Shown: positions 128-28,422, numbered from the stretch's first letter. The stretch is DNA of 39,462 nt from Candidatus Dojkabacteria bacterium (GCA_028704525.1 JAQWFF010000001.1:1-39462); one strand, 5' to 3'. Program-made: numbers and translations. Notes: generated by a model not told the origin, from the sequence alone.

Positions 128-3100
128 TCTCTGCAAGGATGCTAAGTAATCTGTCATGTATCTTCTTATTAGTATCTTTTCTATAATACTCTGGAAGAAT
201 TGCACCACTAAACTCATTCAAAGCTACTGCCCTTCTAGGCTTTGCTTCAAGATATGGTACTGGAGCTGAAAGAAGTCTATCAGCCCACTTCTTTGTTTTC
301 TCTACAAGGTATTCATCTGTAACTGAATCAAACTCATAACCATTGTTTCTAAATGCAGAAATGAAACTTGCCATAGTCCTACTTCCCTTTGCATAATCCC
401 CCATTGCATACTCTAAATGCTCTGAACCTCTATAATCAAATTCAAACTCTCCTTTGTAATCTTTTGTACTAAACTTGTTGTACTGCTCTAACTTCTGAGC
501 TTGTTTTGCAAAGCTATTATATTGCTTAGAGGTTATCTCATCATACTCTGCTTCACTTACCAGCCTTCCATAACTATCCCTCTTGGCTTGTGCAATTGAT
601 TTATATTGTTTAGCACCTTTTGCTTTAATTAGGTTTATACCACCAAATATACTTCCCTCCTGTCCTTTAATCCCCTTACCAAACATAGCTCTTACTTTGT
701 TCTCTGTAGTATATGGCTCTTTCTTACCACTAATCTTTATATATGGCTCACTAAACATTCCATCAAAATATCTCTCAATCCATGCTTCATACCTATCAAA
801 TGTACCATCATCAATCTCCTGCACTTTTTTCTCAATTGCTTCCTTTGTTGCATACTTATCAACCTCTTCTCCTGTCTTATTCTTCTCCAGCTCTCTCAGG
901 CTTCTGTATAATCCATATAAGAAGTGTTCTAACTGTACATCATTATCATACTGCTCCATTACACCTTCTACATACACTTGCTTCATATACTTGGTATCAA
1001 GTCTTGTATTCTTATTAGCTTCTTCTTCTACCATTTGCTGTACTATTGCCTTCTTCTGTTTCATTACCTTCTCATCACCCTCTGCAACTTCCTGCATCAA
1101 AAAGTCTTTGTTCTTTTTAAATGTTTCTGTTTCTACATACTCCTGATAAGGAATATGTAACGGCTTGTAGATAATTGGTACTTTTATTCCCCTCTCTTCT
1201 AAATATAGAGCCTTCATTGCATGGCTTCTCTTTGCTTTGTAAAACAATTCACCCTTTGCATCACCATGTTGAATAGCATCCTGAAGGTCATACATATAAT
1301 CATCAACCTTATCAAACATCTCTTGAACTGCTTTGTCATTAAAGTAGAACTCCTGCCATTGTTTCTTATTAAGGTCATATTCTGGAGCTGGTACTCTTGG
1401 AGAATATATATCATGAGAATAAAGCCTGTTATCTCTATCCACTTCTGGATCAATAATCTCTCTACCACCTACAAGAGTTATTTCACCAAACCCTCTTATT
1501 GGATTCTCTGGCTTTGTTACTGCAAGTGATGGAGCTGGGAGCTTCCCATCAAATTGAGCTAATAGCAAATTCTCAGCAGATATATTATGCAATGTAACAA
1601 GTGGCTGTAATACACCACCTACTTGTGTTCTAAACATTCTTCTCTTCTCTTGTCTATACTCTGGATTTACTCTTCCATCTGGAAGTAATTGGTCTGTCTT
1701 AGTTCCAGCACCCTGAATAGATGCAAGATACTTATTCCAATTCTTCTGTTGCTTTGCTTCTAATCTTTGCTGTCTATCAAGTAATCTTCCAGATATAAGA
1801 CTCTCATAGAAATCATCAATGTCTTTAATATGGTCAATACCTCTAAACATTCTATCTACAAATACATCTACCATTCTCTTTAACTTACCCCAGAAAGTAG
1901 TAGAGTTTCTATTGTTAATATAATCAATAATATTCTCTGCCAACCATTCCTCAGCCATTGCATCTGCACTTACTACTTGGGAATCAACACCTCTGTACAT
2001 ACCTTTTGCATTTTTAGTAATACCAAACTGATTCCTATACTCTCTCTGCTTACTTCTTTGTGAAGCATTTTTTGAATATGGTAAATCTCTTGGGTCAAAT
2101 TTGCCCTCTACAATTGTATATGGATTCTCAAAATCAGCAGGTTTAAGTGCTGTAATATGCCATGTCTTTCCATCTACTTGCTCTCCAGCAAGACCAAACT
2201 GACTTCCATCTATAAGAGATTGAGCATGTACAGCATCCATTTCACCATCTACAAGATATATAACTCTCTCTCCAGTTTTTGCATCCACATATTGAACAGA
2301 AGAACCATACAGATTCTCAGGCTTTATACCAACACTTTCTGCATAAGATAAAAGAAGATTCTCTTTACCACTCCATTCTGGACTTCTCTTTGCAATATCT
2401 TCTACTCCAACACCAGCTCTTCTAACTGATGGGAGATTCAATTCATAACTTGCTAATGCACTAGACCAGTAACTTGCCAATCTTAGCTTATCTTCTGATG
2501 TCCTTCCATTCCATTCCTTTACAAGATTCTCTTTCCCTACTCTCTTTACAACCTCTTTTATCATTGCACTCTTCTCATCTGCTGTAAGGAATATATCAAA
2601 AGCTTTATGTACTGCTTCATGATAGAAGGTACTTCCAATATGAGCTTGACCACTCTTGATCTCAATCAACCTATTAAGATACACACCAAGAGCCTTCTTG
2701 TTTCTTAGTATGTTTTTAACTAGCTCTACATTATCATCACCAAACCATACTTTACTTATCTCCTTCATAGCACCTATTGTCATTTGATCCTTCATCTTAT
2801 CCTCTAAGACTTTTAATTCATCCTGTCTGAATGGAAGATCATCATCTGTAAACACATCTTCTCCCTTATCAAATGCCAATGGAGATTCTTTTAAAACCTC
2901 CATTTCTTTTTTCATCATTGCTAATATTTCTTTTGCATATCTTTCATCTTTAGATACCCTGCCCATATCAGAATCCAATGTTGTTTTGAAAATAAACCTG
3001 TAATCATCAACAACTTTTTGCTGATCTTTGATCTCTCTCTCTAATTGTGCTACATATTTATCATATCCACCAGCAACCTTAACCTTCTTATTTACCTTCT

Positions 3101-5663
3101 CCATGTATTTATCAAGTGCATATTGTTTAGGATTCTCTTTTTTATACTGAGCTTCCTCTTCCTCTAAGAAAACAGAATCCATTAAAGAAGTTGCAATATC
3201 TTCTATAGATGTCATTCCACTATCTACTTCTTCTTGCATACCATCTCTTTTAATCATTGATTCAATCTCATTCTTTATGGAGGTTCTAACCATATTAAAC
3301 TCATTCTTCATCCCTTCAGGTATATACTTTGATGTCTTCTTATACCCTCTTAAACTATCAAACGCCAACTGAATAATTTCTGGATTGCTAGATTCTTTTG
3401 AGATATATTCTGGCAAAACACCTTTTATTTCTGGGACTTCTTTTAATACTGTACCTTTCTTCTCAATCTTTTCTGGGGTTACCTCAGGCTTCTGCATCTC
3501 TACCCCTTCTCTACTCTGACTCTCTTCTAAGATAGCTTGATATACTTGCCATGCCTTTGTACCTTCTTGTGGGATTGTGTTATTTAAGAAAGCATCATAT
3601 GCCTTCTGTACATACTTCCTACTTCTCAATGCTTCTGGAATAAACTCTGGTATTACCATTCCTTCTACTCCATAACTGTAATCCTCATTACCATAGTTAG
3701 CACTCTCTGAATCACTTACTTTTGAAACAACTTTCCTTTTTGCTCCCTGATCTAATACTGCACTTATATCTCTTAATACTTCTTGAACCTGAGCATCCTC
3801 TGAATAATCAGTTTTAACCTCACCCTCTTCTATCTTAACTTCCTGTACTGGCTCTGCTACCAACCCACTTTCTGCTTGTGCAATATCTGCCTTTAACATC
3901 TCTTCTTCCTTGTCTATTTCAACACCACCAAATACTGATTCTGGCTCTTTCATAACCTCTTCTTTAGGTACTATAATCTCTCCAGAATCAACATCATACA
4001 AATTACCCTCTTTATCTAAAGCCTTATCTTCTGCAAGACCAAACTTCTCTTTGTTGTTATTTATGTAATCAATAGATTTTTGTTTATCTTTATTCTGAAC
4101 ATAACCCTGTATCATTGCTCCAGATTGTGTAGCACCAAAGCCAAGAATCTCTATCAACATTCTCTCTCTACCTTCTTTAGTATCAATCCCTTGATATTCT
4201 GTTCTTTCTATGGCAGATTGTAATGGATTGAGTAACTCTTCCTCTAAGAACTCTCCAACTACACCATCAAACTTAGCTTGTTTCAAAAGACCATAGAGAG
4301 TACCTTGAGCCAATTTACCAGTTTTTCTCATCCAGTTAGCAAAACTACCAAACACCTTAGTTTTAATAAGACTATTCATAAACTCTTCACCACCAGTACC
4401 CAATACCTGACCCCAACTTTCTGAATATACTTCTAAGAAATTTGAAAGCTTTGCCATTTGCATTGCTTTGTTATCCTCTGAAACAACACCAAAACCTTGC
4501 TCCTCTTCTGAATACCTTGCATCCTGTAATTTCTCAAGAATAATATCACCTGTCTTATCTACAAAATATGCATATTCTGGAGTAGTAAGCTCTAAATACT
4601 TCCTATCAATTTCTGAGGTATAATGTGGAGCAAGATTCATAGCTCTTACTGCCTGAACACCTGCAACTTCTAAAGTCTTTAAAAGCCCTGTTGAAACACT
4701 TGTTGGATCTGGTACTCCACCACCTGAAAGAACTGCTGATGTTGCCATTGCACTTCCCCATCCAAGAGATGTTCCCTGTAAGCCAAATATTTTGTCCATA
4801 AGGCTTTTATCAATCTCCTTCTGCTGTTCTAGTTTATTAACAAAATCTATTAAGGCATATGACTGCTCACTTTCTGAAAGACTATCCCATCCCTCTTTCT
4901 CTAGTTTTCCTGTTGCTTCTGCACCTTTCTTTAATGTAGATGTATTAAATGTTGGAGTTGCTATTGTAGTTCCCTCTTCATTGAAAGCATTACCTTTAGC
5001 AAATCCCATATCAATATTCTTTAAGAACTCTGGAAGTATTCCCTTGCTTATATAAGTCATTCCAAGCTCTGCTTCTAACTTCTTTAAAGCAATATATTCT
5101 TGTGTTCCCTTAACCCTTTCATAATCTTTTCCTATTATTTGAGGATTTGTTCCTAACTCCTCACTCAATGTATCTACCTTCTCTTTAAGAATTTCATAAG
5201 CCCTTAGCTTAGCTAAATCTTGTACCTCTTGTAATGTATCTATTTTCTCCTGACCTGTTTTGAGATTGTCATAGTATTGTTGTAGCTCTTCTCTATTTAC
5301 TTTCCCACCCTTACTTTCAAATCCAATAAACTCTTCTTGAAATCTCTCCCAATCTGTTCTTTTATCTCCCTCTTTTCTTTTACCAAGTGTTATATCCTTA
5401 ACAAAATTGCCAACCTTCTTGAAAAAACCAACCTTCTCTTCCTCTGGCTTTACAACTTCTTCTGTAGGCTTAGTTGATTCTTCCATTTTCTCTTGATAAG
5501 AAGTATCTTCCTCAGCAGTATTTAACCAAGCATTAAAACTTTCAAATGTACCACCTTCTTGAGATTCTGTACTTTGTTCTGTAGATAAACTATTAGAAGA
5601 AGATTTCTCTTTCTCATCTTCATCATCATCTTCTAACCACTTTCTGAAGTCATTGATAGCCAT
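1..5663 (-). CDS. Giant multidomain virion or ejection-type ('polyvalent'-like) protein, N-terminal ~1,887 codons. The ORF runs off the left edge and continues at 39335
   Basis: Manual translation from the ATG at 5663-5661 (MAINDFRKWLEDDDEDEKEK...) found no stop down to position 1. It is missing from the ORF track because it has no stop codon inside the window. An HEAVH (HExxH) motif is encoded at 2607-2621. Only junk plus-strand ORFs are listed in this 5.6-kb stretch. Confidence 0.85.
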   Translation of the reverse strand, partial: MAINDFRKWLEDDDEDEKEKSSSNSLSTEQSTESQEGGTFESFNAWLNTAEEDTSYQEKMEESTKPTEEVVKPEEEKVGFFKKVGNFVKDITLGKRKEGDKRTDWERFQEEFIGFESKGGKVNREELQQYYDNLKTGQEKIDTLQEVQDLAKLRAYEILKEKVDTLSEELGTNPQIIGKDYERVKGTQEYIALKKLEAELGMTYISKGILPEFLKNIDMGFAKGNAFNEEGTTIATPTFNTSTLKKGAEATGKLEKEGWDSLSESEQSYALIDFVNKLEQQKEIDKSLMDKIFGLQGTSLGWGSAMATSAVLSGGGVPDPTSVSTGLLKTLEVAGVQAVRAMNLAPHYTSEIDRKYLELTTPEYAYFVDKTGDIILEKLQDARYSEEEQGFGVVSEDNKAMQMAKLSNFLEVYSESWGQVLGTGGEEFMNSLIKTKVFGSFANWMRKTGKLAQGTLYGLLKQAKFDGVVGEFLEEELLNPLQSAIERTEYQGIDTKEGRERMLIEILGFGATQSGAMIQGYVQNKDKQKSIDYINNNKEKFGLAEDKALDKEGNLYDVDSGEIIVPKEEVMKEPESVFGGVEIDKEEEMLKADIAQAESGLVAEPVQEVKIEEGEVKTDYSEDAQVQEVLRDISAVLDQGAKRKVVSKVSDSESANYGNEDYSYGVEGMVIPEFIPEALRSRKYVQKAYDAFLNNTIPQEGTKAWQVYQAILEESQSREGVEMQKPEVTPEKIEKKGTVLKEVPEIKGVLPEYISKESSNPEIIQLAFDSLRGYKKTSKYIPEGMKNEFNMVRTSIKNEIESMIKRDGMQEEVDSGMTSIEDIATSLMDSVFLEEEEAQYKKENPKQYALDKYMEKVNKKVKVAGGYDKYVAQLEREIKDQQKVVDDYRFIFKTTLDSDMGRVSKDERYAKEILAMMKKEMEVLKESPLAFDKGEDVFTDDDLPFRQDELKVLEDKMKDQMTIGAMKEISKVWFGDDNVELVKNILRNKKALGVYLNRLIEIKSGQAHIGSTFYHEAVHKAFDIFLTADEKSAMIKEVVKRVGKENLVKEWNGRTSEDKLRLASYWSSALASYELNLPSVRRAGVGVEDIAKRSPEWSGKENLLLSYAESVGIKPENLYGSSVQYVDAKTGERVIYLVDGEMDAVHAQSLIDGSQFGLAGEQVDGKTWHITALKPADFENPYTIVEGKFDPRDLPYSKNASQRSKQREYRNQFGITKNAKGMYRGVDSQVVSADAMAEEWLAENIIDYINNRNSTTFWGKLKRMVDVFVDRMFRGIDHIKDIDDFYESLISGRLLDRQQRLEAKQQKNWNKYLASIQGAGTKTDQLLPDGRVNPEYRQEKRRMFRTQVGGVLQPLVTLHNISAENLLLAQFDGKLPAPSLAVTKPENPIRGFGEITLVGGREIIDPEVDRDNRLYSHDIYSPRVPAPEYDLNKKQWQEFYFNDKAVQEMFDKVDDYMYDLQDAIQHGDAKGELFYKAKRSHAMKALYLEERGIKVPIIYKPLHIPYQEYVETETFKKNKDFLMQEVAEGDEKVMKQKKAIVQQMVEEEANKNTRLDTKYMKQVYVEGVMEQYDNDVQLEHFLYGLYRSLRELEKNKTGEEVDKYATKEAIEKKVQEIDDGTFDRYEAWIERYFDGMFSEPYIKISGKKEPYTTENKVRAMFGKGIKGQEGSIFGGINLIKAKGAKQYKSIAQAKRDSYGRLVSEAEYDEITSKQYNSFAKQAQKLEQYNKFSTKDYKGEFEFDYRGSEHLEYAMGDYAKGSRTMASFISAFRNNGYEFDSVTDEYLVEKTKKWADRLLSAPVPYLEAKPRRAVALNEFSGAILPEYYRKDTNKKIHDRLLSILAENGINKIFYVSDDSMNEKSKIINEQFEDVKYRMGDNPSPEAMA

Positions 5664-11131: not shown

Positions 11132-12060
11132 TATTTTTCTCCTCTTAATTTAGTCCAATCATCTTCATCCTTGCTTGTCTTGGTAAAGACCTCTTCATCC
11201 TTACTTGTCTTATCCCAATCACCAACAAGCCTTGCTACCTTACTTGTAACTACAACATCTATAGCTCTCTTAGTCCAATCTTTAACATCTATGAAACTCT
11301 TTTCCCAGTTGATAATCATTCCATTCAATTTTCTGGCAAGAGTATCTGTTAAACCAATCATACTACTTAATACTATTCTAGCACTTTTTACAAAAGAATC
11401 AGATAGAGATATGGAATCAACAAAGTTTTTAATTGGCATAATGAATCCTGAATCAACAAGCCCTATTCCTTCACTTAAAGTTGTCATTGTTTTTTTAGCA
11501 ATACTATCAATTGCAGAGATAGTATCTGTAAAAATTAAAGAAAGTGTTTGAGCAAAGGTAAGACTATCTGAAGCTTGAACTTCATCTGTAAATGTTTTAG
11601 TTGGCAATACCTTTGCAACAATCTCTGATAATGACAAGTTATCCACAAATGTGAGTAACTTATCCAACTTCTTGCCAAAAGTATCAGCCATACCAATGCC
11701 ATCAGTAAAGAGCCTTGAGAAGAATTGGAAGTAATCTGTAAAGAAGTTATCCACAACATTGATTGAATCAACAAAGACTTTGAGTAGCACCTTTGAAATA
11801 GATCCTGTATCAGCCACACCTATACCATCTGAGAAGGGAGTTTTATTTGTAAGCTTGTTAAACACTTCTGTAAGACCAACAGCATCTGCAAACACTTTCA
11901 TTGGGAAAAATACATGAGAGTCGGTAAGCCCTATCCCATCAGAAAAGCTTTCTGTATATTCCTGAGATAGAACTGGATTTCCACCCAAGTATGTTTGAGA
12001 TAAATAATTGCCACCTGTAGATCCATTACCTGCTTTTATACTCATTGTTAGTAGTATCAA
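11131..12060 (-). CDS. Fiber-like protein built from a short periodic F-x-D-x-[IV]-x-[LV]-x-D repeat
   Basis: About a dozen copies of the FSDGIGLTDS / FADAVGLTEV / FVDSINVVDN type. The track start at 12060 is TTG. An ATG five codons downstream (12045, MSIKAGNG) is the more likely start. Confidence 0.45.
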   Translation of the reverse strand: MILLTMSIKAGNGSTGGNYLSQTYLGGNPVLSQEYTESFSDGIGLTDSHVFFPMKVFADAVGLTEVFNKLTNKTPFSDGIGVADTGSISKVLLKVFVDSINVVDNFFTDYFQFFSRLFTDGIGMADTFGKKLDKLLTFVDNLSLSEIVAKVLPTKTFTDEVQASDSLTFAQTLSLIFTDTISAIDSIAKKTMTTLSEGIGLVDSGFIMPIKNFVDSISLSDSFVKSARIVLSSMIGLTDTLARKLNGMIINWEKSFIDVKDWTKRAIDVVVTSKVARLVGDWDKTSKDEEVFTKTSKDEDDWTKLRGEK

Positions 12061-12090
12061 ATTAAGACTCTACATTCCTATTTAATTCTA

Positions 12091-13221
12091 TCACGATAAT
12101 TCAAATGAAGGTAATGGATGTTTATCCCCTACACTTGAATGAAACTTAGCAGTCTTAAAATTGAGAATATCTCCATATGAAGTTCCTATGGAACTGGTAG
12201 CAAAGGCTTTAAAGTAGTACAAAGTGTTCGGAGTAAGTCCTGATAAAAATATGGAGTAAGTTCCCAATCCACTTGTACTTGTTAGTTTGGTAGTCTGACT
12301 AAACTCGTCTGTTCCATAGTAGACACCCCTCTCTGTTACAGTCTCAGTCCCTTGGTCGGTTACATTTCCCCCAAAAATAACACACTTCCTGTCTAACCTA
12401 CTTGTCGTTGTAGTACTTACCACTGGAGCATCTGCACTCTGTGTAGTTAATTGTGCAGTTATTCCATAAGAAGTCCCTACCGAATTGACTGCATAAGCCC
12501 TTACTCTGTAGTCTGTAGAAGCACTAAGTCCTGTCAATCCTTTTGTGTAAGCACCCGTTCCAAAGGTTCCGTCGTCATAAGCAGTTGAATCAGCTACTGT
12601 AGGGTCGCCAGATGTACCTGTCTTATAGCAAAAACCTCTCCTTGTTACAGAGCCACCCGTAGATGTTATATTTCCATTTCCAACTGCCGAGTTATGGGTA
12701 ACACTAGAACACGCCTGTGTAGTTACAGTAGGAGCAAAGAGCTCTCCATATACAGCAAAAGCCAAATCATGTGTTGCATACGGTGTACCTCCTATAAACT
12801 TATTCCCACTATGAGTAGGACTTGTATTATCTGTTCCAGTATATACAAGACCTGTTCCACCAGAATACCTGAACACAACAATAGTATAATAAGTACCTGA
12901 CTGCATGATATATCTTTCTGTACCTGTAAATGTAAAAGTTATTGCAGTATAAGAAGTTCCAACAGTATCTATACTCACATCCCCAGATGAAGCAATTCCA
13001 TATCCACCAGCTTCAGAACTTGTACCATATGTTCCTGAATGTTCAGCCAACATAGCATACAGATTACCAGTAGCACCAGCGTCTTTTTTAAGATAAAAAG
13101 TACAGCTATAAATAGGAAGAGTTTGAGAACAAGTAAAAGATTGCCCATGATATGTAGCATTGGAAATAGGACTATCATAACTAATATTACTGTTGCTATA
13201 GCTATCAATTAATGTTGCCAT
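12091..13221 (-). CDS. Tail-fiber-associated protein with two tandem FN3/Ig-like repeats
   Basis: The unit ...NGNITSTGGSVTRRGFCYKTG...LTGLSASTDYRVRAYAVNSVGTSYG is repeated as ...GGNVTDQGTETVTERGVYYGTD...LSGLTPNTLYYFKAFATSSIGTSYG. The CpG content is atypical for this genome. Confidence 0.5.
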   Translation of the reverse strand: MATLIDSYSNSNISYDSPISNATYHGQSFTCSQTLPIYSCTFYLKKDAGATGNLYAMLAEHSGTYGTSSEAGGYGIASSGDVSIDTVGTSYTAITFTFTGTERYIMQSGTYYTIVVFRYSGGTGLVYTGTDNTSPTHSGNKFIGGTPYATHDLAFAVYGELFAPTVTTQACSSVTHNSAVGNGNITSTGGSVTRRGFCYKTGTSGDPTVADSTAYDDGTFGTGAYTKGLTGLSASTDYRVRAYAVNSVGTSYGITAQLTTQSADAPVVSTTTTSRLDRKCVIFGGNVTDQGTETVTERGVYYGTDEFSQTTKLTSTSGLGTYSIFLSGLTPNTLYYFKAFATSSIGTSYGDILNFKTAKFHSSVGDKHPLPSFELS

Positions 13222-13353
13222 TATCCTTTAAGTTAAGTTATCTGATAAAGCCATTGTTAATCCACTCTCAAGTTAAAATCACTCATTGTTTTTGAGCAGT
13301 ATATTTCCCCCGAGATTACCCTGCTATAAATTGTTGTTTAGGTTAAAGTTAAG

Positions 13354-15174
13354 CTAAATCTCGTAATATATTTGTCCGTTTGCAGACTTATCGCCAGAGT
13401 TTACCCATGAGGCAAGTGGTCCTGAGTAAAGAGTTGCTGTTGTAGCACCACTTGTTCCAATGTTTATATTACCTATCTTTGCTACTCCATTATCAACTGC
13501 AAGTATAATTCCCCAATGAGAATGATTTGTAATAGCCCTTGCTGTTACTGGTAAAGAGATTGTATAAGTTGTTGCATTACTTGTTCCGTTTGATGAAGAA
13601 GAAAACCTAAAATAACAAACATTCCCTTTTATACTAAACCTTCCTATCATGTTTGGATTAGCAGAGAACCCTGTTATAGCAATTGTATATGCAAAAGAAG
13701 TTGGAAATCCTATTGGATTTTCCACATGACTATAGTAAGGCGAGGTAATTGCAGCATTGGCTACTGTAAAATCACTACCACCTGTAACTGTTAAAACTGT
13801 GTCTGCTACACCAACTATATAGAAATATTTAACAGTTGTTTGTGTTAGTTTAATCTTATCTCCCCTCTGATACCTACTTGCTGCTCCACTTGGTACTGTA
13901 ATCGTACTAGCAGAAGCATAAGCCCACGAGTCTGTAACTGCTATCCAACCATCCCAGCTCACATTGATTATAGGACTCGTTAAAGTCTTGCTTGTTAAAG
14001 TCTGTTCAGCAGTTGTTCCTACAATCGTACCTGTCGGAGCATGTTGCCCGTCTAGTGTATCAGCATTACCTGTTGAACCACTACTAAACTGATACATGAC
14101 AATAATAATATCTCCTGTACTAGGAGCTGTATTAAATGTGAATGTACCAGAAGCAGGAGTTGTTTCTGTCCAGTCCTCACTACTTCCTTGAGTTTGTAAT
14201 TGTCCGTTTAAGTAAACTCTTAAACTACCACTAACATAACTTCCTAAGCTAACTGTATAAACTGTGTTTGAGCTATTAACTAGTCCTGATAACACTCCAT
14301 AAGTATCAGATGTGCCACCGCTACTGTCTACTTGAATACTGTTACCACCAACACCTTCTACAAACAAATCCCATTTACCAGCCGATAAATCAGTTGCAAA
14401 TGTTCCAGATGTATGAGCTGTTACACATATATATGCACTACCATTCTCTTCAATCACATCATTAACCTGATAGGCTGTTGATGTTACCCATGCCCCTTCC
14501 CATACAAACTTAGTACCATCAATATAGGTCTTAACTGCTTTCTCTGTAGGTATGTTAGTATCAGCATCACCAGTAAGTGTTCCATCTGTACTGATCAAAA
14601 CATTACTTGTTCTAATATCCTTATTAGTAAGATTGAATACTGCCACCTCACCATCTGCAATACCTGTTTCATTGAGTGCTGTAATATTTGTTGTCTTAGG
14701 AATTTTTGTATCTGCGTAAGTCTTTACAGCCTTCTGAGTAGGTACTTTAACATCACTATCTCCTGCAAGAGTACCATCTGTATCAAGATAACCGACAGGA
14801 ATAGAAGCATCATCACCAGTATTTGTACCACTTACATTATCAAGATCACTTCTATTAGTATGAGTGGCAAGTGTTAGTAAGTCATTGAAATCTTTTGCAC
14901 TTATCTGTTGAAAAATAACATCACCAACTTGAATATCTCTAGCAGTTGTACTCTCTTGCTCTCTTACAATAGTTAAAGTATCGCCAACTACATTACTTAC
15001 AGTTACAATTTCTGAATTAGTAGAATCTGGAGAAGTATTTACAGGACAAATTACAGCAGGTTCACCAGTTGCAAACCTTGTACCATGACCAGTTGCAACA
15101 ACTAATGATGTACCAGAAGTTGTTGGACTAGGAGCTGTAGCTACTGTTGAAATTGTAAAGTTCTTTTTACTCAT
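13354..15174 (-). CDS. Tail fiber protein
   Basis: 606 aa. It has three copies of the motif D-G-T-L-x-G-D-x-D-x-x-[IV]-P-T-x-K-A-V-K-T-Y (for example PTQKAVKTYADTK and PTEKAVKTYIDG), which is typical of phage fiber repeats. It is Gly/Ser/Thr rich. The C-terminal two thirds carry CpG-containing codons. Confidence 0.65.
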   Translation of the reverse strand: MSKKNFTISTVATAPSPTTSGTSLVVATGHGTRFATGEPAVICPVNTSPDSTNSEIVTVSNVVGDTLTIVREQESTTARDIQVGDVIFQQISAKDFNDLLTLATHTNRSDLDNVSGTNTGDDASIPVGYLDTDGTLAGDSDVKVPTQKAVKTYADTKIPKTTNITALNETGIADGEVAVFNLTNKDIRTSNVLISTDGTLTGDADTNIPTEKAVKTYIDGTKFVWEGAWVTSTAYQVNDVIEENGSAYICVTAHTSGTFATDLSAGKWDLFVEGVGGNSIQVDSSGGTSDTYGVLSGLVNSSNTVYTVSLGSYVSGSLRVYLNGQLQTQGSSEDWTETTPASGTFTFNTAPSTGDIIIVMYQFSSGSTGNADTLDGQHAPTGTIVGTTAEQTLTSKTLTSPIINVSWDGWIAVTDSWAYASASTITVPSGAASRYQRGDKIKLTQTTVKYFYIVGVADTVLTVTGGSDFTVANAAITSPYYSHVENPIGFPTSFAYTIAITGFSANPNMIGRFSIKGNVCYFRFSSSSNGTSNATTYTISLPVTARAITNHSHWGIILAVDNGVAKIGNINIGTSGATTATLYSGPLASWVNSGDKSANGQIYYEI

Positions 15175-15209
15175 ACCACCCTTTTAACAAGTTATTCTGA
15201 CTGCAAGTC

Positions 15210-15761
15210 TTAGACTGCACTTAACACTATCTTATGGGTTATCTGTAAACTATCTCCACTTGCTACATTAACTGCACTAAATGTTCTATAAGCAATCAAA
15301 TCACCACCAGAAGCATTGTTAAGCAACCCCTCTTCTGTTACTGCAAATGTATCTGTGAATGTAAATGTATTTACTGCTTGAGCTGTATCACCAGCAGAAG
15401 TTGTTGTTTCACTTGTTGGAGTTACTGCAACTCTTTCACCACCACCAGTTACTATTTCACTATTCAAAGCTGTAGTGCCACCAGTACCAATACCAATTGC
15501 CATATGAGAAATAGGGTCTGCTGTTACACCACCCAAAAGCTTTGCACACTCTGAAAGCCCAGCTGTCGTTACAGTATTATAGACAACAACATTCTTTGTC
15601 CATCTTCCTGTAATAAAGGGTAATCTTAAATCAACCTTGAAAAGCTTATTTACAGCATCCCATAATTTGTTAGGCTGAAATAATGACTTTGTATTCCCAG
15701 AAGAATCTCTGAGCTGTAGCTCAACGATCCCCTTCATTCCTGTTCTGTCCATACTATTCAT
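15210..15761 (-). CDS. Structural protein (unknown; tail or neck)
   Basis: 183-aa ORF in the structural block, Thr/Gly/Ala rich. No specific motif recognised. Confidence 0.35.
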   Translation of the reverse strand: MNSMDRTGMKGIVELQLRDSSGNTKSLFQPNKLWDAVNKLFKVDLRLPFITGRWTKNVVVYNTVTTAGLSECAKLLGGVTADPISHMAIGIGTGGTTALNSEIVTGGGERVAVTPTSETTTSAGDTAQAVNTFTFTDTFAVTEEGLLNNASGGDLIAYRTFSAVNVASGDSLQITHKIVLSAV

Positions 15762-25719: not shown

Positions 25720-25884
25720 ACTAAAACTTAATATAAATAAGACCACGATTACAATTAAACTAATAACTAATGAGAAGAGAATATCATTTCTAACCCTTTT
25801 CTCTCTCTGCAAACTTTTGTACAGCTCTTCTTCTAACATTTTATTTTTCTCTTTTAAGTGAGTAACTATCTCTTTCTTCTCCAT
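25711..25884 (-). CDS. 57-aa protein with coiled-coil N-terminus and C-terminal TM helix (MEKKEIVTHLKEKNKMLEEE...LFSLVISLIVIVVLFILSFSNK)
   Basis: Translated manually. It has a TAATATG junction at both ends and shares the junction repeat. Confidence 0.45.
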   Translation of the reverse strand: MEKKEIVTHLKEKNKMLEEELYKSLQREKRVRNDILFSLVISLIVIVVLFILSFSNK

Positions 25885-25899
25885 ATTACTTATTGTCTT
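25871..25899 (-). repeat. Gene-junction repeat, copy 2 (29 nt identical to copy 3)
   Basis: The plus strand reads tctttcttctccatattacttattgtctt. Confidence 0.8.
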
Positions 25900-26221
25900 T
25901 TAGTTTAGATTTATAATGCTTCATATTCTTTGGTAATAATTCCTCAACGGAACTACCACAACCTCTTAAAATATCTCCTACCCAGTACTTCTCTCCACGA
26001 TTTTCTAAAAGCAATTCGTCCAACCCTTTTTGTATGATATTTACAGTTTTCTCTACTCCGTTATCAAACCCCTCTTCCCTTGCTTTGGATAGTTCTTCCT
26101 CTATGATTATGTCAATTCTTGGTAACAAATCTTCTATTACATCAACTGCCCTTAGGCTTCTCCTACCCATTAACCATATAATTCTATCACTTAACTCTTT
26201 TTCCCAATCTTTCTTCTCCAT
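25886..26221 (-). CDS. Hypothetical protein (MEKKDWEKE...)
   Basis: 111-aa ORF flanked by two identical 29-bp junction repeats. It contains several CpG dinucleotides, which is unusual for this genome. Confidence 0.4.
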   Translation of the reverse strand: MEKKDWEKELSDRIIWLMGRRSLRAVDVIEDLLPRIDIIIEEELSKAREEGFDNGVEKTVNIIQKGLDELLLENRGEKYWVGDILRGCGSSVEELLPKNMKHYKSKLKDNK

Positions 26222-27031: not shown

Positions 27032-27104
27032 AGCTCCAGCTAAGACTTGAACTTAGAACCTACTGTTTACAAAACAGTTGCTCTACCAGTTGAGCTACAG
27101 GAGC
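27032..27104 (-). tRNA. tRNA-Thr (anticodon UGU)
   Basis: Manual cloverleaf: GCTCCTG-TA-GCTC-AACTGGTA-GAGC-A-ACTGT-TTTGTAA-ACAGT-AGGTT-CTAAG-TTCAAGT-CTTAG-CTGGAGC-T. It has a canonical D arm, a TTCAAGT T loop, U33 and A37, and one U-U mismatch in the acceptor stem. No CCA is encoded. Confidence 0.85.
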
Positions 27105-27293
27105 ATCCTTATCCTTTCCCCCAGATAAATACTTGCAATGTACAAAAAACTCAGCAAATCAAATTGCATATCTTTTCCCTTTAAAGAGCAAACAAGTATC
27201 CATCTTGTGGATGTCCAGAGGAAGGGATAAGGATTCAAGCTTTGTGCTTCAGGAACTGCCCCATCCTGCCAACAGCCCACTTGAGTTCTAATT
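27105..27293 (-). ncRNA. Structured spacer or leader RNA abutting the 5' end of tRNA-Thr
   Basis: There is no credible ORF here (track ORF 27095..27280 overlaps the tRNA). A long-range helix pairs GAATCCTTATCCCTTCC (~27234-27218) with GGGGGAAAGGATAAGGAT (27122-27105), which includes a 10-bp perfect core ATCCTTATCC/GGATAAGGAT. Internal hairpins are ATCCA-CAAGA-TGGAT and TGCAAT...ATTGCA. Confidence 0.4.
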
Positions 27294-27453
27294 CTTAGGG
27301 GTAGGGATTTGCACCCTACAACATCCAGTGGCCTACTTTGCTACAATGCGAATCACGCAACACATTTCGGCCGAGCGGACAGGCTGCTCTGATTAGGAGA
27401 ATCACTTTGCCCCTGTGACATAAACCTGCGTCTACCTATTCCACCACCCTAAG
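27294..27453 (-). ncRNA. tRNA-like RNA of ~160 nt: class-II (Leu-like) acceptor and D arm plus T arm, separated by a ~95-nt GC/CpG-rich insertion
   Basis: The 5' CTTAGGG (27453-27447) pairs with the 3' CCCTAAG (27300-27294). TG-GTG-GAATAGGTAGA-CGC closely mirrors the bacterial tRNA-Leu D arm. A GTAGGG-TGCAAAT-CCCTAC hairpin lies directly 5' of the 3' acceptor strand. I could not fold a canonical anticodon arm by hand. Confidence 0.5.
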
Positions 27454-27463
27454 TTTTAAAGAG

Positions 27464-27763
27464 CTACTCTCCTAATTTTAATTCATCCCAAAACACATTC
27501 TTAACTTCTATCTTCAAGGCTGGAAAATAGACATCTGTAACTTCTTCCCCACTAGGAAGAACAAAACTGCCTGTAGAATATCCAATTTTATCTTTCTTAC
27601 TTAACTCATTCCAACCATTCTTATATAAAAGGCTTTCCCAAACAGTACCTTTTCCACTCAAAACTTCTGTTCTTGGTAACATTGGTACAGTACTCATTTC
27701 TTTTCCGTCTATTATTTGAATATCTTTCCTCATTACTTCACCTCCATTTGAGCATAAGCCCAT
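27464..27763 (-). CDS. Hypothetical protein
   Basis: 99-aa ORF. The likely true start is the ATG at 27733 (MRKDIQ...), which forms a TAATG overlap with the stop of the upstream gene. Confidence 0.35.
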   Translation of the reverse strand: MGLCSNGGEVMRKDIQIIDGKEMSTVPMLPRTEVLSGKGTVWESLLYKNGWNELSKKDKIGYSTGSFVLPSGEEVTDVYFPALKIEVKNVFWDELKLGE

Positions 27764-28422
27764 CTATAATTCTTTAACCAATTTGTAGTATCATGTCCTA
27801 CATATTTTCTACTCTTAGCACTATCAGTACCTATTCCAATATAGCTCTTCTGTACTCCAGTACAAATCTCTCTTGCCATTGTTTCCATATCAGGGTCATA
27901 ACTTCTGTTACCACCTTTAAACCATCCATAGAAATTTGTTTTTCTACTTGTATTCCTACCCATAGATGTTTCTGCTACTGATATTGCTACTACTGTTCTT
28001 AGAGCTTCATCAGAACAATACTTGTCAAGTAGAGTAAAATACTTATCATCTATCTTTGAACCAGAGTAGCTTTGAGTAAATCTCTTTACTGCTTGAGTAG
28101 AGCTTTCCATAAATACTTCAGCTGGAACAACCTCTACAGTACCATCAGCTTTAGTAGTTACTTTATCTCCATCAACCCACTCTTCCTTATCTTCAATCAC
28201 AATCTCTTGAGCTTGTACTTTCTCAGGAGCTGGATCTACAGATACTTTAACCTCACCCTTTCTACCTACAAATGTTAAGAGCAATAAATAGATGAGCATA
28301 CCCATTGCTACTAGAAAGAAGAATCTTCTAAAAACTACTTCTCCTCTCCTTTGACCATCCAAGAGATTGATACTCTTTAGAAAAGTCTTAAACTTATTAG
28401 ATTTTATATTTAAAATCTTCAT
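27733..28422 (-). CDS. Membrane-anchored putative peptidoglycan hydrolase (glucosaminidase/lysozyme-like)
   Basis: It has an N-terminal TM helix (FFFLVAMGMLIYLLLLTFV). The C-terminal AISVAETSMGRNTSRKTNFYGW resembles the catalytic region of FlgJ/glucosaminidase-type enzymes. This is motif-level evidence only. Confidence 0.35.
   Translation of the reverse strand: MKILNIKSNKFKTFLKSINLLDGQRRGEVVFRRFFFLVAMGMLIYLLLLTFVGRKGEVKVSVDPAPEKVQAQEIVIEDKEEWVDGDKVTTKADGTVEVVPAEVFMESSTQAVKRFTQSYSGSKIDDKYFTLLDKYCSDEALRTVVAISVAETSMGRNTSRKTNFYGWFKGGNRSYDPDMETMAREICTGVQKSYIGIGTDSAKSRKYVGHDTTNWLKNYRWAYAQMEVK

Follow-up and report, generated by a model that had tools for sequence, protein, structure and literature searches.

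The C4 RNAs of phages P1 and P7 and the CI RNA of phage P4 are antisense phage immunity RNAs that are processed by RNase P and have known targets. Other non-coding RNAs of phages and prophages, such as ROOL, GOLLD and YrlA, lie beside tRNA genes, and YrlA has a tRNA-like domain that is closed at its acceptor end. Transfer-messenger RNA (tmRNA), which phages also encode within tRNA arrays, carries a large internal domain between its D region and its T arm. Furthermore, the non-proteogenic tRNA-Gly species of Staphylococcus, which have TGC or TGT in the T loop instead of TTC, bind neither EF-Tu nor the ribosome (PMC7826273). Here, we analyzed a 355-nucleotide (nt) block on the minus strand of a phage-type contig of 39,462 nt, hereafter called the window. 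We consider it likely that this block consists of two tandem non-coding RNA genes followed by a tRNA-Thr gene and that the first of the two is a tRNA-Leu-derived member of an RNA family, for which we coined the label TLF. Our comparison shows that the TLF family exists, that its tRNA-type fold is kept by selection, that its decoding parts are gone, that it lies among tRNA genes, and that its arm is hypervariable.

The first RNA gene (27453–27293, minus strand) lies just behind an open reading frame (ORF) at 27464–27763, whose TAG stop codon (27466–27464) is followed by the 10-nt spacer CTCTTTAAAA, in line with the distance of about 10 nt given in the original prediction. The module opens with the acceptor 5′ strand CUUAGGG (27447–27453), which forms seven Watson–Crick pairs with 27300–27294. 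U8, G9 and a tRNA-Leu-type D arm, GUG / GAAUAGGUAGA / CGC, come next (27428–27446), with A14, A15, G18, G19 and A21 at their canonical positions; in the DNA, the arm reads GTG-GAATAGGTAGA-CGC (27444–27428), and its 11-nt loop, closed by a 3-bp stem, is identical to the family consensus. A hypervariable domain of 108 nt (27320–27427) is followed by the T arm (27301–27319), a 19-mer shared with IMG/VR sequences, which has a 6-bp stem, GUAGGG/CCCUAC, and the loop UGCAAAU (U54, G55, C56, A57, A58). The gene ends (27293–27300) with the acceptor 3′ strand CCCUAAG (27300–27294) and the discriminator A (27293), and CCA is not encoded. Checked letter by letter, CTTAGGG (27453–27447), TG and the D arm stood as predicted, and GTAGGG-TGCAAAT-CCCTAC (27319–27301) is indeed followed by CCCTAAG, the exact complement of the 5′ strand. 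The anatomy that had been read from the single sequence (acceptor, U8-G9, Leu-type D arm, 6-bp T stem, G55 and an insertion replacing the anticodon and variable arms) is also correct.

In the computed fold, the variable domain of the window begins with a 6-nt linker and is closed by the stem AUGUC-A-CAG / CUG-GAUGU, which encloses two hairpins and ends 1 nt before the T arm. Five of the six CpG dinucleotides of the module (27349, 27356, 27368, 27372, 27376 and 27429) fall inside it. The predicted enrichment in a nearly CpG-free genome is real: the whole window contains 58 CpGs in 39,462 nt (observed/expected 0.051, compared with 1.07 for GpC), which gives a mean of 0.24 CpG per 160 nt, and the GC content of the module is 0.51 vs. 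0.354 for the window. The single-sequence fold energies of the block are unremarkable (z = −1.8 and −1.2; for the module, z = −1.2). Because these folding statistics are weak, the case for a tRNA-like RNA was built on sequence comparison.

We scanned the T-arm 19-mer, GTAGGGTGCAAATCCCTAC, exactly against IMG/VR. Among the matches listed, it occurs more than 120 times, and the resulting TLF set comprises 85 unique sequences from more than 110 loci, with lengths of 83–311 nt; within the same scope, 93 of 111 members have A as their discriminator, mostly with U next, and more than 100 phage loci share one and the same D loop. All have a common layout. They begin with an acceptor strand of 7 nt that varies in sequence and is complementary to the 3′ end, followed by UG and by a D stem of 3 bp enclosing GAAUAGGUAGA; after a variable stretch come (C/U)AU and the T stem (6 bp, loop UGCAAAU), and then the acceptor 3′ strand and the discriminator. 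The window has in common with the family all 11 nt of the D loop, all 19 nt of the T arm, U8-G9, the 7-bp acceptor and A73. In its D loop and T arm, the window agrees letter for letter with more than 100 other phage loci, a resemblance far beyond chance. BLAST searches of GenBank phages added members with other T stems, in SPP1, SPG24, phi3T-type phages, Enterococcus phage A2, Listeria phage LP-101, Leuconostoc phage Ln-9 and Weissella phage PWc, and many Lactobacillus phages also carry a member. None of these GenBank phage records annotates it.

Could the module simply be a tRNA pseudogene in decay, or an intergenic spacer that resembles a tRNA by chance? Its folding z of −1.2 is weak, and among the relatives of the locus, the copy of L010 is truncated and has no T arm and L001 lacks the module altogether, which marks it as dispensable here. 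The covariation across the family, however, already contradicts this explanation. We aligned 27 diverse frames, including those of the Bacillus phages SPP1, SPG24 and phi3T, Enterococcus A2, Listeria LP-101, and Leuconostoc, Weissella and Lactobacillus phages. Pairing holds in 98.6% of the cells of these frames, and 12 of the 16 pairs have changed on both sides. All seven acceptor pairs covary; acceptor pairing is somewhat inflated because at least six of seven pairs were demanded when the acceptor strands were located beside the D-arm motif, a bias that does not affect the results for the D and T stems. The covariation score was 0.706, compared with 0.171 after shuffling, and none of 500 shuffles reached it, while slid controls were 31–55% paired; a set of 41 frames gave the same picture. 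The D stem occurs as GCG/CGC, GUG/CAC, AUG/CAU, CUG/CAG and UUG/CAA, and the T stem covaries in GenBank phages (GCUAGG, GUAAGG, GCAAGG, GGGAGG) around an invariant T loop. The positions that make the L-shape (U8, A14, A15, G18, G19, A21, G53-C61, U54, C56 and A58) are invariant or nearly so. With compensatory substitutions in all three stems, D and T loops that are letter-identical over phages of Bacillus, Listeria, Enterococcus, Leuconostoc, Weissella and Lactobacillus as well as the probable Patescibacteria phage of the window, and six CpGs kept in a genome with an observed/expected ratio of 0.05, a pseudogene or chance resemblance is scarcely credible.

The constant parts are nearly invariant across TLF, whereas the arm defies alignment. 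The variable domain of most members consists of a 6–7-nt linker and a single arm that ends 2 nt before the T arm, at the position of a class-II variable arm; in the minimal 83-nt form, this arm is a 7–8-bp hairpin. The central domain ranges from 31 to 260 nt, and the sequences compared fall into 42 unrelated arm classes, the arm of the window being unique and unrelated to the other 41. At least 15 classes are found in the identical GUGCUUG frame of Lactobacillus plantarum-type prophages. SPP1 and SPG24, which belong to different phage families and share a host, have the same arm. In another member (L061; T arm 589–607, minus strand), the arm holds the canonical T-arm sequence GUUGGUUCGAAUCCAAC, i.e., a tRNA fragment nested in the tRNA-like frame.

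Unrelated arms in an identical frame resemble cassette exchange via constant flanks, so the conserved parts might instead function at the DNA level, e.g., as the core of attP, as a pac or cos site or as a hot spot of recombination. In temperate siphophages, the element lies just upstream of the packaging genes, and in the related locus L035, the P2a hairpin of the second RNA (see below) is exactly inverted. On the other hand, the stems are maintained through compensatory changes and through G·U pairs, the latter valid on the gene-sense strand only, and the element is present in strictly lytic phages (SPP1 and Herelleviridae) and inside tRNA arrays. The SPP1 copy is located between genes 9 and 11, away from the pac site, which we take to be in gene 1. 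When an attP/integrase link was checked, no integrase was found among the ORFs scanned. A role of the conserved parts as DNA is, in our judgment, very unlikely.

How does the TLF frame compare with a tRNA? It is like bacterial class-II tRNA-Leu in its 7-bp acceptor, U8-G9, 3-bp D stem and 11-nt D loop with A14, R15, G18, G19 and A21, as well as in G53-C61, U54-A58, C56, A73 and an arm immediately 5′ of the T arm. Unlike tRNA-Leu, TLF has no anticodon arm, carries G55 in place of U/Ψ55, has a 6-bp T stem and possesses a "variable arm" of 31–260 nt that is unrelated from one member to the next. An anticodon arm (5-bp stem, 7-nt loop, U33, R37) is absent in the window and in all 85 members. The T loop has UGC, not U54-U55-C56, and the acceptor/T stack is 7/6, i.e., 13 bp, in all members. 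When ARAGORN (intron and tmRNA modes) and Rfam 15 (to E ≤ 10) were run on the block, as the original prediction had proposed, only the tRNA-Thr was found. The module had no Rfam match at E ≤ 10 and stayed below the gathering threshold of the tRNA model RF00005 (29 bits). ARAGORN made no call on the 85 members, with or without introns, or on the window module, and with relaxed thresholds in tRNA, intron, tmRNA and mitochondrial modes, it gave low-credibility calls only.

One option that had been raised was an intron- or insertion-bearing tRNA, i.e., a functional tRNA-Leu in which splicing would restore the adaptor. The Leu-type D arm fits this option, a D-arm query of TLF also matches annotated tRNA-Leu genes in cyanophages, and a 7-nt hairpin loop in the insert of the window, CCUAAUC, contains UAA. 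However, no member, not even the minimal one of 83 nt, has an anticodon arm that could be restored by removing the insert, and G55 and the 6-bp T stem are present in every member. No intron or tRNA model of Rfam, including the group I intron model (Intron_gpI), matched at E ≤ 10, and the intron mode of ARAGORN was blank on the window and on the 85 members. The inserts (108 nt here, 31 nt in the minimal members and up to 260 nt) are unrelated to one another and are too short and diverse for group I introns. We therefore regard an interrupted tRNA-Leu as highly improbable.

TLF is like tmRNA in the order of its parts and in having its D region separated from its T arm by a large internal domain; phages encode both RNAs in tRNA arrays, and the two are adjacent in Enterococcus phage A2. 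Unlike tmRNA, TLF has a true Leu-type D stem, no G3·U70, no pseudoknots or tag frame, and a length of 83–311 nt. A miniature tmRNA-like RNA, with a tRNA-like domain and an internal coding or tag region, would share the topology (acceptor, D region, helix-closed internal domain next to the T arm, T arm, acceptor), would accord with the neighboring tmRNA in A2, and could use a 22-codon AUG frame that is present in the insert of the window. However, pair 3-70 is U-A rather than G·U, the tmRNA models of Rfam and ARAGORN found no match, the frame has 13 codons in L010, the minimal insert of 31 nt is a simple hairpin, and the arms are unrelated across members. The probability of a miniature tmRNA is negligible.

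The staphylococcal cell-wall tRNA-Gly is like TLF in its UGC T loop; it is excluded from EF-Tu and the ribosome (PMC7826273) and provides a precedent for a tRNA-shaped RNA designed to stay outside translation. It differs from TLF in that it is host-encoded, has a normal anticodon arm, a 7/5 stack and glycine identity, and serves as a donor for Fem transferases. The C4 and CI RNAs are, like the RNA proposed here, small phage RNAs cut from a longer transcript by the tRNA-processing machinery, with a short variable part that sets the specificity between related phages; unlike TLF, they are antisense RNAs with known targets and lack an L-shape of D and T arms. For the arm of the window, no significant antisense target was found in its own genome (best match 9–13 nt, E ≥ 0.05). 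ROOL, GOLLD and YrlA share with TLF the position beside tRNA genes in phages and prophages and, in YrlA, a tRNA-like domain, but they differ in size and architecture and show no sequence or model similarity. The family-wide evidence thus favors the option of a tRNA-mimic non-coding RNA or a new phage RNA class that the original prediction had listed. An Rfam scan of 28 family loci gave nothing at the elements, and no description of TLF was found in the literature searched by full text, although a large catalogue of candidate phage RNAs (PMC10690425) may list it under a number; a paper on the re-annotation of SPP1 does not mention the element. TLF appears to be an undescribed family of a known kind, the tRNA-like non-coding RNAs.

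The surroundings of other TLF members are those of an independent gene. In phage Lenus, a member lies between two tRNA-Arg genes, and in Enterococcus phage A2, directly 3′ of the phage tmRNA within a tRNA array; the locus L085 has two copies in tandem. In prophages, members are found 60–400 nt downstream of tRNAs or of a ROOL RNA (~230 nt downstream of ROOL in L052). In Sha1, H1-Guo and LP-101, the member is located between a late-gene regulator and HNH/terminase genes, and in SPP1, in the 360-nt gap from gene 9 to gene 11. Within a plasmid collection, TLF occurred only on phage-sized Lactobacillus replicons and on one Bacillus replicon. No conserved protein partner was seen, the flanking ORFs being heterogeneous over 13 diverse loci. 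In the SPP1 locus (L173; X89721.1), a mini acceptor/T-arm hairpin (CGGAC...CGCGGGUUCAAUUCCCGGAGUCCG, then a U run) follows just past the TLF member at ~1615–1665 of the locus, with a weak local tmRNA match (E = 0.024). In the SPG24 locus (L178), a string of "hypothetical proteins" of 21–51 codons is annotated on both strands at 1150–1520, over the TLF member and a neighboring structured RNA; these are probably spurious gene calls. In L093, the ORF right downstream of the member (150 amino acids, MRQLIIARKDLHMSPGKLAAQVAHAS...) may encode a PTH2-type peptidyl-tRNA hydrolase.

The second structured RNA of the block (~188 nt; 27292–27105, minus strand) comprises the helices P2, P2b, P2a and P3. 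Its P2 domain (27235–27292) contains P2 (27284–27279/27240–27235), P2b (27274–27271/27248–27245) and P2a (27268–27264/27254–27250), the last with the conserved loop UGGGGCAGU at 27263–27255. P3 (27105–27234) is a long irregular helix with its 5′ strand at 27234–27215 and its 3′ strand at 27124–27105; the long-range helix that had been predicted as its core, AUCCUUAUCC (27234–27225) with GGAUAAGGAU (27114–27105), was recovered, and its 3′ strand stops one base before G1 of the tRNA-Thr (27104). P3 encloses an insert of 90 nt (27214–27125), which holds a second leader-like sequence, GCUCUUUAAAGGG; the insert is 13–14 nt in the related loci L010, L018, L020 and L037. This second RNA is conserved in L001, L010, L018, L020, L029, L035 and L037, and the divergent loci L038 and L042–L048 keep a GGCAGU loop and a UAUCCCU.../...AGGNAUA helix. 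Over seven sequences, 95% of the cells are paired and seven pairs show double changes, five of them in P2a and P2b. P2b varies as UGUU/AGCA, UGU/ACA and UACU/GGUA, and P2a as CAGGA/UCCUG, UCGGU/ACCGA and ACGGA/UCCGU. In P3, 96% of the cells are paired, with C-G replaced by U-A or U-G at 62/105 and 75/92. The G·U pairs are valid on the gene-sense strand only, and the L001 block folds with z = −5.3. Covariation thus appears to give this RNA modest support. It has no Rfam match (to E ≤ 10) and was found only in this group of probable Patescibacteria phages. In L035, the P2a hairpin (2265–2283; TCGGTACTGCCCCAACCGA) is the exact reverse complement of that in L001 (2236–2254; TCGGTTGGGGCAGTACCGA), a small inversion that flips the otherwise invariant loop.

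The relation between the two RNAs was examined in homologous loci, which we anchored on TerL, DNA patterns and a 229-amino-acid upstream gene and took from IMG/VR, JGI, ENA, Logan and one metagenome-assembled genome (MAG) of GTDB. In L001, whose TerL is 98% identical, the 3′ block is kept at 92% identity and a hairpin with a 10-nt loop replaces the 160-nt module; L020 and L029 also have a plain hairpin in its place. In L010, the first 79 nt of the region are 100% identical to the window, as are the first 66 nt of the variable domain, and the sequence then runs straight to the 3′ acceptor strand, without the remainder of the domain or a T arm; its P3 is short. This copy (3581–3775) looks like a decaying one: the module is without its 3′ 85 nt, and P2a and P2b join the 5′ half of one allele to the 3′ half of another, breaking several pairs. 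L036 carries a second full tRNA-like module with the same D loop and T arm, a compensated acceptor (CUUAUGGGA/UCCCAUAG) and D stem (GUG/CAC), and an unrelated middle; its P2 is truncated and P3 is absent. L018 and L037 have unrelated inserts of 66–85 nt in the same stem, and L038 and L034 are without the P1 stem and have P2-like and P3 helices. These relatives show that the tRNA-like module and the 3′ block, which occupy a common slot, can be separated from each other. A second non-coding stretch of L038 (3520–3790) has a T-arm-like hairpin (CAGGG UGCAACU CCCUA) together with what may be an acceptor-like stem (GCAGGG/CCUUGC), but no D arm of the Leu type; this stretch is possibly a TLF relative that has diverged or degenerated.

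Several points weigh against the reading of the block as a TLF gene followed by a second RNA gene. The base of the P1 stem (CUUA..GGG / CCC..UAAG) is common to relatives with other inserts, and because of this, the module could also be an exchangeable peripheral domain within a single larger RNA. It is dispensable in the lineage, as the plain hairpins of L001, L020 and L029 and the partial copy of L010 imply. In the window, A73 is followed by AUUAG, so that the +1 base is A, unlike the usual U of the family, and the acceptor starts with C1-G72. The seven sequences used for the P2–P3 pairing analysis are closely related, and the acceptor pairing has the bias mentioned above. Furthermore, all functional steps of TLF (expression, processing and aminoacylation) are inferred from sequence.

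We considered whether the whole 355 nt could be one structured RNA (leader-P1-P2-P3), in which the module would be a lineage-specific elaboration of a variable P1 that is never released. The leader and the P1 base are shared, and the interiors differ: a 10-nt loop (L001, L020, L029), inserts of 66–85 nt (L018, L037), others (L042–L048) or the module (window, L036). There is no spacer between the module and P2, and no terminator or convincing promoter was found inside the block. However, outside this lineage, the module stands alone without P2–P3, in tRNA arrays and with tRNA-type ends (A73, then U, CCA not encoded), and within it, L036 has a module with a truncated P2 and no P3, and L038 and L034 have P2-like and P3 helices without P1. 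A single RNA is thus unlikely, and the fused 355-nt molecule of the original prediction is not supported, because the module is a stand-alone gene elsewhere (in tRNA arrays, beside tmRNA, in tandem copies) and L001 keeps the 3′ block with a hairpin instead. Fusion to the tRNA-Thr as a designed feature is likewise unsupported: the tRNA-Thr directly abuts P3 in the window only, that of L001 (2810–2880) lies ~400 nt downstream (~410 nt after P3), none was found in L010, and none is visible beside the element in L018 and L020.

Returning to two separate genes, we propose that the TLF RNA would be transcribed inside a polycistronic transcript, that RNase P would cut its 5′ end and RNase Z would cut after A73, and that CCA would then be added. 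This processing is suggested by the tRNA-array context, the A73 followed by U and the unencoded CCA, in keeping with the preference of RNase Z for such 3′ ends. The product would be a stable L-shaped RNA that is unable to decode and that probably associates with neither EF-Tu nor the ribosome; G55, the 13-bp stack and the missing anticodon point to its exclusion from translation. A73 and the Leu-type D-loop geometry are present in the module, and the leucyl-tRNA synthetase of E. coli ignores the anticodon. The constant frame might serve as mimic or decoy toward a factor recognizing elbows and acceptors of the tRNA-Leu type; alternatively or in addition, it might be a scaffold on which the variable arm is displayed as a specificity part. 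In the window, the two flanking tRNA-type processing sites would release the P2–P3 RNA as a piece of ~188 nt; since the arrangement is not conserved, we do not treat this release as the purpose of the module.

Tentatively, then, TLF may be a new class of phage tRNA mimic that is processed by RNase P and RNase Z, tailed with CCA, possibly leucylatable and kept off the ribosome, with the arm as the specificity determinant of a decoy, sponge or guide in phage–host or phage–phage conflict; we hold this as one possibility rather than as the expected outcome. If true, a role in conflict would account for the exchange of unrelated arms, among the phages of a single host species, in a frame that stays constant. 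The unusual design, in which the folding and processing parts of a tRNA are kept, the decoding parts are removed and a hypervariable arm is set in an invariant frame, suggests that phages use the tRNA shape for a purpose other than translation. If real, TLF would be a large unannotated yet easily found RNA family, whose carriers include textbook phages (SPP1 and the SPbeta-like phi3T), therapeutic-type Enterococcus and Listeria phages, dairy Lactobacillus and Leuconostoc phages and a probable Patescibacteria phage. Annotation would also be affected, as TLF loci are now blank or filled with spurious small ORFs, e.g., in SPG24.

The window encodes TerS, TerL, a VRR-NUC nuclease and an endolysin-like protein, and all genes around the block are on the minus strand. 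Among GenBank phages, megablast and blastn found no close relative, the tRNA-Thr alone being matched. The protein of the 229-amino-acid gene (27733–28422, minus strand) is placed by its NCBI record in a "Candidatus Dojkabacteria" MAG, and we infer that the window is a phage of a Patescibacteria (candidate phyla radiation, CPR) host, the host being drawn from binning only. The tRNA-Thr (UGU; 27032–27104, minus strand) is canonical according to ARAGORN and scores 68.9 bits with Rfam. The block had been described as ORF-free, which is roughly true, except that a GTG-initiated ORF of 61 codons (27095–27280) exists mechanically; its region is mostly missing in L010.

The leader UAG-CUCUUUAAAA (27454–27466, minus strand) is identical or nearly so in the window, L001, L010, L018, L020, L029, L034–L038 and L042–L049. 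Its UAG is the stop codon of the upstream ORF, whichever ORF this is, and the upstream ORFs differ among the relatives. In the window (27464–27466) and in L010, L018, L020, L029, L034–L038 and L042, non-homologous ORFs all end at the UAG that opens the leader, UAGCUCUUUAAAAC; among their products are a 99-amino-acid protein, proteins of 62–72 amino acids, an HNH endonuclease, a YopX-domain protein and the 229-amino-acid protein itself. A −10-like TAnnnT frequently overlaps this UAG. Three candidate functions of the region were rejected. A promoter at the leader was dismissed: one sigma-70-like site ends at 27475, but the count of sites is below that expected from shuffled sequences, and a terminator was not found. 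Readthrough or −1 frameshifting stimulated by P1 at UAG-CUC-UUU-AAA-AC was discarded because the next in-frame stop comes four codons on and the slippery-like run lies past the stop. The 22-codon ORF in the arm has an unconvincing ribosome-binding site and only 13 codons in L010.

The CpGs of the window are clustered at 11922–15725, 25746–26059 and 27349–27429, with 34 of the 58 located within two adjacent minus-strand ORFs (12091–13221 and 13354–15174). This clustering suggests the recent import of CpG-normal segments into a genome selected against CpG. Finally, the gene after the element repeatedly starts with the motif AAATTAACAACAAAGTAATATGGAG, namely in L020 (5555–5580), L037 (3595–3620) and L042–L049 (~3460–3485); in L043, the motif occurs a second time (3585–3610). 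The genes after it differ between otherwise identical contigs, and the motif looks like a module-junction sequence.

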